From a virus, in the UHGV virus genome UHGV-0320916: a DNA stretch of 30,316 nucleotides. The stretch is one strand, 5' to 3'. A program made the translations under genes and the position numbers. Position 1 is the stretch's first letter. The number at the start of each line of letters is the position of its first letter. Positions 8,727 to 11,956 of the stretch are shown here, piece by piece. The notes under the pieces were generated by a model, which had not been told where the DNA came from, did not search any database, and worked only from the letters and a program-made list of their open reading frames with translations.

Positions 8727-8839
8727 TTTGATATTTTATAAATTTACTTCGAATCTGGCACGTCAACTTTTGATTAAAGTAATATCAGTTTTCGGCGAAA
8801 AAAGGACCGTGTACATGAGACGATTTCATACAAGAATAA

Positions 8840-8889
8840 CAAAAATATGAATATGCTCCCAATGCAATATATGTTTTGCATTGGGAGCA
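8840..8889 (-). terminator. 13-bp perfect-stem hairpin (gctcccaatgcaa / ttgcattgggagc) 21 nt past the hydrolase stop, U-rich on the minus-strand side
   Basis: Stem 8855-8867 pairs with 8877-8889; minus-strand downstream sequence auauucauauuuuu. Confidence 0.45.
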
Positions 8890-8909
8890 AATAGCGGAAT
8901 ATTTTGAAA

Positions 8910-10394
8910 TTATTGTATTTCTGCTTCAGAATTTCCTGGGCAGTATATATTTTCTATTTTTTGTGGAGTGATCAGGTGATGTACAACTGCTTTATCTACA
9001 CATAAATTAACTCCGGTGAGAGCTAATGTATGCCCATCACCATTTATTGTTAGTAACGGGCTGGAAAATTTCTCTGCCATCTTACGGGCATTAATCCAGG
9101 GCGTTGTTGGGTCGTATTTGTGTGCTACAAACAGTAAACCAGAGGGCAGAACAGTATTTTTCAGGCGAGTTTTGTTCAGGTCGCTATGTATTGGCCATAA
9201 TTCACAAAAATCAGGTGAATCGGAACGTCCATTGTCAAAGTTAATGGCCGGGAAGGCATTCGCAAGAGCGTCTTTTCGGGATTTTCGCTCTTCTGGTGTT
9301 AATTGCTCATCCCCCTGATCTACACAGAGGATTACCCCCGAAGCATCGCTTGACTCTTCTGAGGCTATCGGAGCACTGAGCGCAGTTTCAATTTCATTAC
9401 TGACAATCCCCTGAGAGAACTGGCGTATGGCAGTTGCAAGGGTTGGCCATGATGAACGCCATAGCAGAAGGTCTGTTGTTAATGATATGAGTTCATCTGA
9501 AGATATATTTTCTCCCTTACTGTCTAATAAAGGTTTGTGATGTAATTTTGATAATAGCTCATGGAACTGAGTTATTGCCTTATCTCTGTCTGAAGAAAGC
9601 GGGCAACTTTTTGTACGCGCACACCAGGATGCAAAGCGATCAAACGTTTCCTGATAACTCTGTGCCTGTTTGAGTTGCCATGTGAAGTTGTCCTCCAGGT
9701 CATCGATATCGACGACTCCATCAAGAACGATAGATCTTACGTTGTAGGGAAAACGTTCTGCATATAAGGCTGCAATTTGAGTTCCATACGAATACGCCAC
9801 GGCTGTCAGTTGTTTATCCCCCAAGGCTTGCCTAATACGATCAATATCGTATACAGCCTCGTTAGAGCCGATATGGCGAATGACTTCGGCTCCGGTATTA
9901 TGGATACAGGCATTAATTTTATTTAATACTTGTTGCTTTTCGGTTATGTTTTCCTGAGTCTCTGTATCTGATTGCCGGCAGTTTATTGTCGGAGTGGACT
10001 GTCCGACGCCTCGAGGATCAAATCCAATAATATCCCATGACTCACGAAGATTTGTGACTGGCCAGTCAAAGTTAATATAAGGATTTATGCCTGGTAACCC
10101 GGGACCACCACTTATTATCAGGATACTTCCTTTATGCTTGCTTTTTGCCGGCAATTTTGTCAACGCTAGTTTGACTTGTGATTTTTTTTCATAAGAAGCA
10201 TCTCCGCCTGTGTCTGTATATTTTAATGGAACAGACAAATAACCACATAGTAAGTCAGGAGACGGTTTTTCCTCACCAAACCAGTGGTTGAATTGACTGG
10301 CCATACAGGATTGCCACTGTATCTGCTGGGCAGATACGGTTACTGGTAGAAGTAACGTTAAAACAACTTTGAAATGAGTAATTATTTTTCGCAT
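8910..10394 (-). CDS. Secreted alpha/beta hydrolase, S33-like peptidase/aminopeptidase family (494 aa, signal peptide)
   Basis: N-terminal signal MRKIITHFKVVLTLLLPVTVSA; GGPG oxyanion-type motif and AYSYG nucleophile-elbow-like motif; AT-rich codon usage. Confidence 0.6.
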   Translation of the reverse strand: MRKIITHFKVVLTLLLPVTVSAQQIQWQSCMASQFNHWFGEEKPSPDLLCGYLSVPLKYTDTGGDASYEKKSQVKLALTKLPAKSKHKGSILIISGGPGLPGINPYINFDWPVTNLRESWDIIGFDPRGVGQSTPTINCRQSDTETQENITEKQQVLNKINACIHNTGAEVIRHIGSNEAVYDIDRIRQALGDKQLTAVAYSYGTQIAALYAERFPYNVRSIVLDGVVDIDDLEDNFTWQLKQAQSYQETFDRFASWCARTKSCPLSSDRDKAITQFHELLSKLHHKPLLDSKGENISSDELISLTTDLLLWRSSWPTLATAIRQFSQGIVSNEIETALSAPIASEESSDASGVILCVDQGDEQLTPEERKSRKDALANAFPAINFDNGRSDSPDFCELWPIHSDLNKTRLKNTVLPSGLLFVAHKYDPTTPWINARKMAEKFSSPLLTINGDGHTLALTGVNLCVDKAVVHHLITPQKIENIYCPGNSEAEIQ

Positions 10395-10580
10395 TGTGTC
10401 TCTGAATATCGGAATAAAGATAAGATTTGAATATATTGAGGTCTTGTGTTGCGGTAAGAGATTACACGTTATGACATAGGTTAAATGCTTACAAAATTAG
10501 TGGATATTGTCTACTTGTAACTGTAAACAAATTCCCCGGGGTTATACAATACCACCGGGGAGAAAATCTGGTTAACTTCG

Positions 10581-11534
10581 TTAAAAGGTGTACTTAAGAC
10601 CAGCAGTAGTGATGAAGTTATAGTTTTCTATGCCTGCACCATTTTTGCTGTAGTCTGAAGTGTTATCATTGTGATCATAAAGTGAAGTATTACCTTTTTT
10701 ATTCGTAACCCGATTCCATGCGCCTTCAACATAAACTTTTGCGTTAGGTGTTACGTAATAACCTGCATTGACTGCAACAGAATAGTAATTTTGGTCTTTG
10801 ACTTTACTGCGATAAGTGATTCTTTTTCCTGGGTCATAGTGCTCATCGTTATCAGATGCTTCCACCCAGCCGCTGTATTTAAATGTGCCACCTAGCTCAA
10901 AATCTTCATAACGATAACTTCCAGTCAAGCCAATGTAGGGCATTTTAAAACGTTGTTTGTAGCCGATTGCTCTTTCTCCATTCGGGAAGGAGCCGATATC
11001 ATCTCTGAATCCCTCCTCAGAACTGTAGATATAGGAACCACCTCTGGCTGTAAAGCTATAACGGCTTTCCTGATATCCGGCCATGAGTCCCAGGCGGTAA
11101 TTGGGTTCGTTGAGGAGCCAGCCTTTGATATTCAGATCAAATTCGTTGGCATAATTGAGTTGTGTATCAGGGTGCCTACTTTCATCTGTCCAGGTTCCGG
11201 GGTTACTGGAATCCATCCAGTCCTGATCGACCATATTGCCACCTCGGCTGCCGAGAGTAGTCCAGCCCGCAGCCCCAATAGATATCTGGGGCATCAAATC
11301 CCAATTAATTGCACCTTTAATAATTGCAGCGTTATTGAATTTCCAGTCGAGTTGACTGACTTTTCGGCCTCCTTCTTCAGCTAGATAAACGCGCTCTTTT
11401 GTTTTTCCGCTCAGAGTTCCAAGACTAATGTCCGCATTTATGTTGTCAGGAGTAAACGATATAGTCTCGGTAGAAGCAAAAGAGCTGATCGCAATAGGGG
11501 TTGTCAGGACTATTCCCAGAAGTTTCGCCCGCAT
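10581..11534 (-). CDS. ompT: Outer membrane protease OmpT (omptin family)
   Basis: 317 aa MRAKLLGIVLTTPIAISSFASTETISFTPDNINADISLGTLSGK...AGLKYTF, essentially identical to E. coli OmpT as remembered. Confidence 0.93.
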   Translation of the reverse strand: MRAKLLGIVLTTPIAISSFASTETISFTPDNINADISLGTLSGKTKERVYLAEEGGRKVSQLDWKFNNAAIIKGAINWDLMPQISIGAAGWTTLGSRGGNMVDQDWMDSSNPGTWTDESRHPDTQLNYANEFDLNIKGWLLNEPNYRLGLMAGYQESRYSFTARGGSYIYSSEEGFRDDIGSFPNGERAIGYKQRFKMPYIGLTGSYRYEDFELGGTFKYSGWVEASDNDEHYDPGKRITYRSKVKDQNYYSVAVNAGYYVTPNAKVYVEGAWNRVTNKKGNTSLYDHNDNTSDYSKNGAGIENYNFITTAGLKYTF

Positions 11535-11956
11535 AAAAGTTCTCCATTCAATCGTTTTAATGATTGAATATGTATTTTTTATATCTAACTTAATGAGTCA
11601 ATTACATATTGCTCCACTGTTTATATTTTGTTTAGTATTGAATGATTATCACAATGCGCTATCTGTTTTTGGTTTAATTATCTGTTATTGTTTTATGTTG
11701 CGGTTTTACTGTGTGGTTTTTTATGCTTTTGTGGTGTTTTTATCTATTTAAGCGCCATGCCTTTAGAGGCATATAAGCGAAAATAGCATGAGGTTTATCC
11801 TCAATTGCTATGTTTTTTGGTACAAAAAAGAGGGACAAAACTGAGACACATAAGGCCTCACAATGGCTTGCAAGGCTTTACATGTTTTGAGGTAGTGGGA
11901 CGTGTGAGCGCAGAGATGGCGCGGTAAGTTGTTGACTTAAAATGTCGTTCTAGGAA

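Follow-up and report, generated by a model that had tools for sequence, protein, structure and literature searches.

OmpT, an omptin protease of the outer membrane, has been much studied in antimicrobial-peptide resistance and is deleted in protein-production strains. In Escherichia coli K-12 its gene lies at the right end of the defective prophage DLP12, in the order ybcY-tfaX-appY-ompT-attR, and in the ompT locus of CFT073-type strains no gene is found between ompT and ybcY (Desloges et al., PMC6854850). Lambdoid phages also carry lom, bor or sitABCD, host-benefiting accessory envelope genes that occupy a similar slot (PMC6969025). The arlABC/PI-6 island of AIEC and UPEC plasmids is another mobile, omptin-centred locus linked to antimicrobial-peptide resistance, with arlA of the Mig-14 family and arlC, an omptin different from OmpT. 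Hip1 (Rv2224c, CaeA), an envelope protease of Mycobacterium tuberculosis, is proven to act as a serine protease and as an esterase, and is predicted to contain five disulfides; its protease activity was predicted from the exported serine peptidases Tap, SlpD and SlpE (PMC4022732). In the literature on ompT, ompP, ECs1662/Z1930, arlABC/PI-6 and the source phages we found no account of the hydrolase described here, of its OmpP-linked copy or of a cargo role, and this frequent downstream partner of OmpT, which about one in four complete E. coli genomes carry and which occurs in O157:H7 and on the classical F plasmid, has apparently never been examined.

We analyzed the viral genome UHGV-0320916 over its full 30,316 nucleotides (the window). 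Its sequence agrees at about 99% identity with that of the lambdoid Escherichia phage 2G7b, and a three-way alignment with K-12 argU/attL and attR revealed that the window is in the attP (excised) arrangement. The source is a functional, excision-competent, argU-integrating lambdoid phage whose relatives have been isolated as virions; the hydrolase-ompT block is also found in the isolated phages ev243, Turner and PhiR49_1/26_1/30_1/29. The layout of the block and its surroundings is as follows.

7703-8371, minus strand: class I SAM-dependent methyltransferase, ybcY-like, adjoining cargo gene (Pfam Methyltransf_12/23/25)
8428-8628, plus strand: tfa/tfaX-like tail-fibre-assembly remnant, left edge of the island (frameshifted partial tfa in the IAI39 annotation; PHROG 2341)
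8651-10530, no strand assigned: hydrolase cassette, allelic to the K-12 appY cassette (blastn against K-12: homology stops at 8650 and restarts at 10531)
8826-11652, minus strand: mobile two-gene module of omptin, hydrolase and control regions (also present on a ColV-like plasmid)
8910-10394, minus strand: Hip1/TAP-like alpha/beta serine hydrolase, 494 aa (ORF, Pfam, Hip1 alignment, AlphaFold2 model)
10581-11534, minus strand: ompT, omptin outer-membrane protease, 317-aa precursor (Pfam Omptin, NF008222)
11957-12003, plus strand: att core, 47 bp (same sequence as the 47 3'-terminal nt of argU, tRNA-Arg, and as the K-12 DLP12 attR core)
12017-13180, minus strand: tyrosine integrase of the intD type, bounding the island on the right (Pfam Phage_integrase 5.2e-47; labelled intD in E. 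coli genomes)

The original prediction had described an AT-rich cargo island between the tfa remnant and the att core, with a hydrolase and ompT both on the minus strand, and all of these elements were recovered in that order, the integrase following the core. The G+C content of the block (8730-11950) is 40.7% against 46.8% for the whole window, and falls to 34% upstream of ompT and to 36% in the spacer between ompT and the hydrolase. Full-length OmpT, equally anticipated, was identified above the cut-off of its subfamily (NCBIfam NF008222, 708 bits vs 537; Pfam Omptin, 2.8e-130, 433.9 bits); it is 99% identical to K-12 OmpT and carries D83, D85, D210 and H212, the catalytic residues known from the OmpT crystal structure (Asp83/Asp85 and Asp210/His212, mature numbering). 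The methyltransferase gene is intact in the window and annotated alike in IAI39, Sakai and phage 2G7b, whereas K-12 ybcY is a pseudogene. Sub-threshold Rfam matches were seen to IS009 over the tfa remnant (8451-8647) and to a partial tRNA at 11907-11990.

Comparison with K-12 defined the slot. The window shares its backbone, ompT, att core and flanks with the right end of DLP12, and homology with K-12 tfaX extends as far as window position 8650; between the breakpoints 8650 and 10531 K-12 has a 1.5-kb appY cassette (7106-8634 of the K-12 comparison sequence) where the phage, which unlike DLP12 is excision-competent and in attP form, has a 1.9-kb hydrolase cassette. The breakpoints bear out the earlier proposal that appY stands next to ompT at the corresponding position, and the K-12 arrangement is an alternative allele of the hydrolase cassette. 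In sibling phages this accessory slot is filled by sitABCD or by appY together with ompT. The phage is functional and temperate, the genes lie outside its core modules and they are present or absent among close relatives, as is typical of morons; since the gene pair is also found on the F plasmid, the finding falls within a class of phage cargo already known. Unlike lom, bor or sitABCD, this cargo is a two-gene unit of protease and hydrolase.

To characterize the hydrolase, we combined profile searches, alignment and structure modelling. Its 22-residue signal peptide and its catalytic residues map as follows.

10329-10394, minus strand: coding part of a Sec signal peptide, MRKIITHFKVVLTLLLPVTVSA (hydropathy profile and conserved cleavage junction)
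9789-9791, minus strand: triad codon Ser202 (Hip1 alignment)
9111-9113, minus strand: triad codon Asp428 (Hip1 alignment)
9030-9032, minus strand: triad codon His455 (Hip1 alignment)

The protein matches Pfam Abhydrolase_1 (PF00561; 3.1e-33, 115.9 bits vs a cut-off of 25.8) and the TAP-like Abhydrolase_4 (PF08386; 1.7e-14, 54.2 bits vs 21), and its best relatives among PDB sequences are chains of M. tuberculosis Hip1 (residues 21-475, E = 3.5e-51), with full-length similarity at about 28-30% identity. In the AlphaFold2 model (pLDDT 91.4) a helical segment is inserted at about residues 230-410, and the first six Foldseek matches in the PDB were all Hip1 (E down to 8e-35, TM 0.74-0.81), so that the predicted structure has the overall fold of Hip1 with a large helical lid insertion. 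S202, D428 and H455 align with the YSYGT and DP.TP motifs and the conserved His of Hip1; across 105 homologues D428 never varies, and S202 and H455 hardly do. All ten cysteines are conserved among the homologues and nine of them align with cysteines of Hip1, implying that the same disulfide framework is to be predicted. The nucleophile elbow reads AYSYG in the hydrolase and in its clade consensus vs GYSYG in Hip1, the first Gly of GxSxG being replaced by Ala; active hydrolases with AxSxG variants exist, and the replacement is therefore probably tolerated. Together, the data indicate that the hydrolase is a member of the TAP/Hip1 clade of alpha/beta serine hydrolases, the MEROPS S33 family, with the triad Ser202-Asp428-His455; the peptidase-like triad anticipated at the outset is present, and the database search proposed to assign the family gave Hip1/TAP. 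The OmpT partner is a clear homologue of an immunomodulatory M. tuberculosis protease and drug target.

Assignment to a substrate class is less direct. Prolyl aminopeptidase (TIGR01249) was rejected, the match covering residues 167-263 alone and scoring 35.8 bits against an equivalog cut-off of 259.75, far too low for a proline iminopeptidase orthologue. TnmK1/K2, which belong to the same fold group in the Foldseek comparison, are not peptidases, so the fold alone does not give the substrate class. With the tripeptidyl aminopeptidases Tap, SlpD and SlpE of Streptomyces lividans the hydrolase shares the PF08386 TAP-like C-terminal domain and the alpha/beta fold, a likeness by family from which exo- or endo-specificity is not readable. 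The Hip1 substrate GroEL2 has no obvious periplasmic counterpart. A search of the BFVD viral structure library returned generic giant-virus alpha/beta hydrolases only (TM <= 0.35) and no phage relative.

The hydrolase had been called secreted. Its N-terminus has the features of a signal peptide, in that the n-region is positive, the core is hydrophobic and QQ is preceded by the cleavage motif VSA; the junction (T/A)VSA|(Q/R)QI(E/Q)W is kept in 6/6 hydrolase variants, the Shine-Dalgarno sequence and the ATG are conserved, the Hip1 alignment begins at residue 21 and residues 1-20 have low pLDDT in the model. These features imply export by Sec, predicting a periplasmic enzyme; export is thus upheld, and nothing supports release from the cell. 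Hip1 and, by prediction, the hydrolase are both exported to the cell envelope (PMC4022732); the hydrolase differs from Hip1 in its Gram-negative host, its Sec signal peptide with a predicted periplasmic location, its carriage by phages and plasmids and its pairing with an omptin.

Comparison of ompT-adjacent gene content across 5426 complete E. coli genomes, which the original prediction had proposed, placed the hydrolase in 1230 (23%), O157:H7 Sakai included (ECs_1662), and the appY cassette in 828, with about 60% matching neither. The contexts of the hydrolase were always prophage or plasmid; the gene is accessory and so is not a housekeeping enzyme encoded outside prophages. An omptin gene lies directly upstream of it in Sakai prophage Sp8 and on ColV-like plasmids, and the same order was found on three metagenomic plasmid-like contigs, on IncF plasmids and on the classical F plasmid. 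The module shares a single 2.83-kb blastn block with a ColV-like plasmid (91.7% identity), the flanks being unrelated, and between phage and plasmid contexts homology is confined to the omptin and hydrolase genes. On the F plasmid ompP and the downstream hydrolase, adjoining RepFIA/ResD, have the same order and orientation and a homologous spacer (92-104 bp vs 186 bp in the window), and the F-plasmid hydrolase retains its signal peptide, triad and cysteines. Identity to the window declines in parallel for hydrolase and omptin, at 95/91, 83/80, 78/73 and, for the F-plasmid pair, 76/70%. Synonymous divergence between the OmpT and OmpP versions is saturated (dS > 1), and four or more mobile contexts that are unrelated to each other still have the same order, orientation and homologous spacer. 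Both genes are under purifying selection, dN/dS being 0.11-0.14 in the hydrolase gene and 0.07-0.18 in the omptin gene. We conclude that omptin and downstream hydrolase are an old two-gene module, kept from phage OmpT to F-plasmid OmpP, which is new here. The pairing is not obligatory, since OmpT is fully active in K-12, where the hydrolase is missing, many genomes have neither cassette and CFT073-type loci have ompT alone. Plasmid pCys-11 carries a hydrolase copy 95% identical to that of the window beside an ompT copy with an internal stop, which the authors placed next to arlC (PMC6854850).

We next considered how the hydrolase is expressed. The candidate signals are the following.

8854-8889, minus strand: terminator-like hairpin with a 14-bp stem, directly 3' of the hydrolase stop (terminator scan and RNA fold)
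10533-10561, minus strand: GC-rich hairpin and T-rich run after the ompT stop, ompT terminator/attenuator (fold -19.8 kcal/mol, z = -2.5)
11574-11634, minus strand: putative ompT control region (consensus matches only)

A terminator hairpin after each gene and a promoter-like site upstream of ompT are signals of the cargo type. The hairpin 3' of the hydrolase folds at -24.3 kcal/mol (z = -5.7; 0/200 shuffles equally good), and Rfam matches to mir-450 at 8836-8911 were rejected as being this hairpin. Consensus matching upstream of ompT gave a sigma-70-like promoter at 11601-11574 and a perfect PhoP-box-like repeat, TGTTTA-N5-TGTTTA, at 11618-11634, a motif that 14/100 shuffles match somewhere in the window. 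Long AT-rich upstream regions had been read as a sign that both genes are independently regulated. The AT-richness is real, but the upstream region of the hydrolase is only 186 bp long and contains the ompT hairpin, and it is doubtful that the hydrolase is regulated independently. No sigma-70 promoter sought for the hydrolase in 10395-10530 reached 9/12 matches. The hairpin 3' of omptin is kept in the OmpP-type and plasmid versions with changes on both stem sides, and in the OmpP-type version only about 45 nt separate it from the hydrolase start, which makes read-through from the omptin promoter more likely than independent regulation. The 186-bp OmpT-type spacer is long enough for a promoter of its own. 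In O157:H7 Sakai ECs1662 and ECs1663 (ompT) share one expression cluster, and on arrays both fall by about 2.5-2.7 log2 at exit from exponential growth (PMC2241611).

The accessory slot in an isolated phage, the exchange of cargo among siblings and the accessory distribution support the proposal of a cargo module for putative lysogenic conversion. We read the block, with a probability of roughly 0.6, as a cargo module, or moron, that occupies the attP-proximal slot and whose Sec-exported hydrolase would act together with the omptin. The most likely role of the hydrolase would be that of a periplasmic peptidase or esterase alongside the omptin; we favor peptidase action, with esterase activity possible by analogy to Hip1. 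Its gene may be at least partly co-transcribed with that of the omptin through read-through of the intercistronic hairpin. The two enzymes would serve one problem, the likeliest task of the hydrolase being to finish peptides that reach the periplasm; candidate substrates are fragments of cationic antimicrobial peptides and other proteins cut at the surface, and the outcome would be protection of the envelope of the lysogen or plasmid host. If the genes do cooperate, temperate phages would transfer a ready-made envelope-defence pair, and strain differences linked to omptins may partly reflect the neighbour of ompT, be it the hydrolase, appY or nothing.

The strongest competitor, which we regard as possible though unlikely, is that the hydrolase is independent cargo, a functional periplasmic esterase, lipase or peptidase whose role is unconnected with that of the omptin (it might, for example, scavenge nutrient peptides or hydrolyse lipids or esters); the adjacency would then reflect the shared history of a once-mobilised and rarely broken 2.8-kb fragment. 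The two genes do occur apart: ompT stands alone in K-12 and in CFT073-type loci (PMC6854850), and certain sheep and goat plasmids retain the hydrolase and have lost ompP. Among the matches listed in a hydrolase-profile locus scan almost all were from Actinobacteria and at least three loci were gammaproteobacterial. No omptin gene adjoins the homologues at <=54% identity in Salmonella, Serratia (plasmid) and Budvicia, and no conserved partner gene emerged from the neighbourhoods of distant homologues (Serratia, Pseudomonas, Salmonella, the Serratia plasmid and Budvicia). The terminator-like hairpin between the genes, ester hydrolysis by Hip1 itself (PMC4022732) and the RAST label "lactone hydrolase" point the same way. 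Independence accounts poorly, however, for the survival of order, orientation and spacer beyond synonymous saturation in those four or more mobile contexts, or for the co-expression with ompT in Sakai. Even without cooperation, the hydrolase would be an orphan enzyme that is easy to test and that belongs to a medically relevant family.

A more specific form of cooperation is tentative, and we would be rather surprised if it held in full: the omptin would cut cationic defence peptides and proteins at the surface and the periplasmic hydrolase would destroy the still-active fragments, a two-compartment proteolysis probably co-induced through PhoP-controlled read-through and spread by phages and F-type plasmids. 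If so, uptake of a phage or plasmid would tune the resistance of E. coli to innate immunity, and the F plasmid and EHEC O157:H7 would each encode a homologue, overlooked so far, of a tuberculosis virulence protease.

It is very improbable that the pair is a barrier to invaders, degrading phage ejection proteins or colicins and so giving superinfection exclusion or bacteriocin protection. A phage accessory slot is a common place for such genes, the same phage carries further envelope cargo (Lom, a porin and Bor), and the hydrolase scores 188 bits with the PADLOC model PDLC01094 ("C3a206, TAP-like protein"); yet this match is family-level, to a candidate accessory protein of no validated system, OmpT has no PADLOC match, no known defence system is so built, and the pair is carried equally by F and virulence plasmids, beside the host-animal-associated iro/arlC loci (PMC10088187). 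Membership of a PADLOC defence system was accordingly rejected, PDLC01094 being the sole match and no complete system architecture being present. That the gene is a decaying passenger, as its replacement or deletion in many lineages and its lack of a known function might suggest, is effectively refuted by its dN/dS, by variants down to 76% identity that have no internal stops and keep the triad and ten cysteines in every one, by intact annotation in > 1200 genomes and by growth-phase-regulated transcription in Sakai (PMC2241611).

Desloges et al. (2019) gave the name "ymcE" to a gene 186 bp downstream of ompT (PMC6854850). This spacing equals that of the window, and "ymcE" is thus probably a mislabel of the hydrolase gene.

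The original prediction placed a secreted alpha/beta hydrolase and ompT together on one strand of an AT-rich block, and the following arrangement was found:

Left of the hydrolase: tail-fibre-assembly gene, broken
8910-10394, minus strand: hydrolase ORF, 494 aa (ORF call, Pfam Abhydrolase_1 and TAP-like Abhydrolase_4)
10581-11534, minus strand: ompT ORF, 317 aa (Pfam Omptin, NCBIfam NF008222)
Right of the att core: intD-type integrase

The flanks were also as proposed, with the broken tail-fibre-assembly gene at the left and a 47-bp att core at the right, and the G+C content of the block (8730-11950) is 40.7% vs. 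46.8% for the whole window. The omptin is 99% identical to K-12 OmpT, scores 433.9 bits with Pfam Omptin and 708 bits with NCBIfam NF008222 (cut-off 537), and carries all the catalytic residues D83, D85, D210 and H212. Left of the island, a ybcY-like SAM-dependent methyltransferase (7703-8371, minus strand; 222 aa) is intact whereas its K-12 copy is a pseudogene; PADLOC returned only a faint mad2 match for it (E 0.003). The tail-fibre-assembly remnant is overlapped by an Rfam match, below threshold, to IS009, a candidate small RNA (8451-8647, plus strand; 79.9 bits vs. a gathering score of 117, E 1.3e-17).

A search of PDB sequences revealed that the best match of the hydrolase, over its residues 21-475, is M. 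tuberculosis Hip1 (Rv2224c/CaeA; E = 3.5e-51), with TnmK1/K2 and prolyl aminopeptidases far behind. The top six Foldseek matches in the PDB of an AlphaFold2 model based on 105 homologues (pLDDT 91.4, pTM 0.91) were all Hip1 structures (TM 0.74-0.81). The hydrolase thus belongs to the TAP/Hip1 family, and the Ser-Asp-His triad looked for is present as S202 (AYSYGT), D428 (DPTTP) and H455 (GDGHT): D428 never varies in the 105-sequence alignment, the other two residues are conserved there at 90% or more, and an alignment of 26 sequences shows no variation at any of the three. The triad of Hip1 is S228/D463/H490 and its predicted disulfides number five (PMC4022732); the ten cysteines of the hydrolase are all invariant or nearly so, and nine of them align with Hip1 cysteines. 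Hip1 has proven cleavage activity on azocasein, tripeptide-pNA substrates, an ester and GroEL2 (PMC4022732). A profile-score test ruled out that the hydrolase is a proline iminopeptidase orthologue.

The predicted signal peptide was borne out, as the N-terminus MRKIITHFKVVLTLLLPVTVSA, followed by QQIQW, is typical of Sec substrates and the cleavage junction between (T/A)VSA and (Q/R)QI(E/Q)W is kept in all variants of the hydrolase. Taken together, the signal peptide, the Hip1-like sequence and fold, the cysteines and the triad lead us to assign the protein to the TAP/Hip1 clade, as a serine hydrolase that is probably periplasmic and disulfide-bonded. RefSeq bacterial genomes use the 494-aa form. 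Phage database records and PHROG 20134 begin the protein at Met31, yielding 464 aa and losing the signal peptide; in the phage record NC_049954 the annotated gene spans 25071-26465 (20511-21905 of the compared segment L002), and the window region concerned is 10305-10394. The Met31 start is contradicted by the conserved W27 and C30, by the conserved Shine-Dalgarno sequence and ATG at 10394 and by the alignment with Hip1 from residue 21.

The most informative result is the pairing of the hydrolase with an omptin. All placeable close relatives of the hydrolase lie directly downstream of an omptin and in the same orientation, on plasmids as well as on phages.

Identity of hydrolase and omptin in plasmid and metagenomic versions of the pair
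ColV-like plasmid, beside the iro locus: hydrolase 95%, omptin 91%
Metagenomic plasmid-like contigs (L087-L089): hydrolase 83%, omptin 80%
Metagenomic contigs (L097-L099): hydrolase 78%, omptin 73%
IncF plasmid-type pairs (metagenomic contig L086; ompP of plasmid p1303_109, L101): hydrolase 76-77%, omptin 70%

The classical F plasmid (NC_002483; 3501-6040 of segment L104) carries ompP, 104 bp and then a hydrolase ~76% identical to that of the window, adjoining the ResD/RepFIA region, and the OmpP-type pair is whole in 156 of 186 matching plasmids. Homology between phage and ColV-like plasmid is limited to 8826-11652, which takes in both genes with their control regions. All versions of the pair share a homologous spacer: a GC-rich hairpin with changes in both stem arms follows the stop codon of the omptin, and the ribosome-binding site and hydrolase start codon are conserved; the OmpP-type spacer is shorter by ~95 bp. 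Low dN/dS ratios (hydrolase 0.11-0.14, omptin 0.07-0.18), together with synonymous sites that are saturated in the deepest comparisons, indicate that, since the split of OmpT from OmpP, both genes have stayed functional and next to each other. Distant homologues (at most 54% identity) in Salmonella, a Serratia plasmid, Budvicia and one further contig had no omptin neighbour, and each gene also occurs alone; the association, though old and common, is not obligatory. On ColV-like/UPEC virulence plasmids the 95%-identical hydrolase lies beside an ompT copy near iro genes (pCys-11, L102 4866-7485; L004 8001-10620), and in pCys-11 the hydrolase is intact whereas an internal stop interrupts the ompT copy.

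At the corresponding position of K-12, appY was expected, and the breakpoints agree: homology to K-12 ends at 8650 and restarts at 10531, just inside the ompT terminator, enclosing 1.9 kb with the hydrolase in the window vs. 1.5 kb with appY in K-12. Comparison of ompT neighbours across 5426 complete E. coli genomes detected the hydrolase gene (at least 80% covered) in 1230 (23%) and the appY cassette in 828 (15%). CFT073-type strains are reported to show a third state in which ompT adjoins ybcY directly (PMC6854850). In O157:H7 Sakai the hydrolase is ECs_1662, beside ompT (ECs_1663), in prophage Sp8, which occupies another site in the chromosome. There, the left breakpoint of the cassette (window ~8644-8652), at which homology to the appY allele of K-12 stops, is the insertion site of an ISEc8 element (IS66 family; L100 16938-19379).

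The cargo block is 100% identical to prophage DNA of E. coli IAI39, CE10 and other strains. In such chromosomes ompT is followed by envY-ybcH-nfrA, like in K-12, whereas in the window it is followed by the att core and integrase. A three-way alignment matched the ompT-side arm to the attR arm of K-12 DLP12 and the integrase-side arm to the argU/attL arm, the shared core (11957-12003, 47 bp) being the 3' 47 nt of argU. At 11880-12040 the window thus shows attP, as expected of a phage genome that has been excised or packaged (or of a tandem junction), and does not represent a simple prophage end. It is 98.9% identical to Escherichia phage 2G7b across 87% of 25 kb; from the hydrolase through ompT and attP to int, identity to phages 2G7b, ev243 and Turner is 99.4-99.9%, and PhiR49_1, PhiR26_1, PhiR30_1 and PhiR29 carry the same block. 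Given the attP form and these phages, a functional lambdoid phage carries the island as cargo, as the cargo-module reading had it, in a slot between tail-fibre genes and attP. The same slot holds sitABCD in phage ev017 and the K-12-type ybcY-tfa-appY-ompT in PhiR68_2.

The proposed independent regulation is doubtful for the hydrolase. The non-coding parts of the block are AT-rich (33-36% G+C). Downstream of the hydrolase lies a strong terminator hairpin (8854-8889, z = -5.7), and downstream of ompT a weaker hairpin whose tail is rich in T (10533-10561); between the latter and the hydrolase start we found no good promoter match. In the OmpP version only ~45 nt remain between hairpin and start, which argues for read-through co-transcription as the likely mode of expression. 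Upstream of ompT, consensus matching located a sigma-70-like promoter (11574-11601, minus strand) and, just upstream of it, a perfect PhoP-box-like direct repeat, TGTTTA-N5-TGTTTA (11618-11634, plus strand). No other repeat of this kind occurs in the window, and at least one turned up in 14 of 100 shuffles. The repeat, a consensus match, is compatible with the PhoP control reported for ompT. In Sakai arrays, ECs1662 and ompT fell into one expression cluster, both decreasing ~2.5-2.7 log2 upon exit from exponential growth (PMC2241611).

OmpT in DLP12, lambdoid phage cargo genes and the Hip1/TAP family were known before, and the gene is labelled 'alpha/beta hydrolase' in thousands of records. 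Our literature search retrieved no characterisation of the hydrolase and no mention that it pairs with OmpT or OmpP; one paper gives the name 'ymcE' to a gene that lies downstream of ompT at a distance of 186 bp (PMC6854850), a spacing that agrees with that of the hydrolase. It is therefore an uncharacterised member of a known enzyme family within a known kind of cargo module, to which we add that omptin and hydrolase form a conserved mobile pair. Though unsurprising in kind, the result is directly testable and bears on a protease in wide use, on the F plasmid and on EHEC.

We consider enzyme family, export, selection, mobility and conserved pairing established. As to function, we infer, with a probability of about 0.6, that the hydrolase acts as a peptidase in the periplasm, and possibly as an esterase too, complementing the surface omptin; its likeliest job would be to degrade peptide fragments that get past the outer membrane. 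That the two enzymes specifically cooperate is doubtful. The main rival, an unrelated periplasmic job with an adjacency that is merely historical, is possible, if clearly the less probable account. A role in defence or exclusion is improbable, being hinted at only by the slot and by a 188-bit match to the PADLOC candidate model PDLC01094 ('C3a206, TAP-like protein'), which we read as family-level similarity only. The dN/dS ratios exclude a decaying passenger. The same phage carries further envelope cargo genes, namely Lom (Ail/Lom; 3150-3749, plus strand), an OmpC/NmpC-type porin (26730-27872, minus strand) and Bor (29603-29944, minus strand), which with OmpT and the hydrolase make five envelope-directed accessory genes in ~30 kb.
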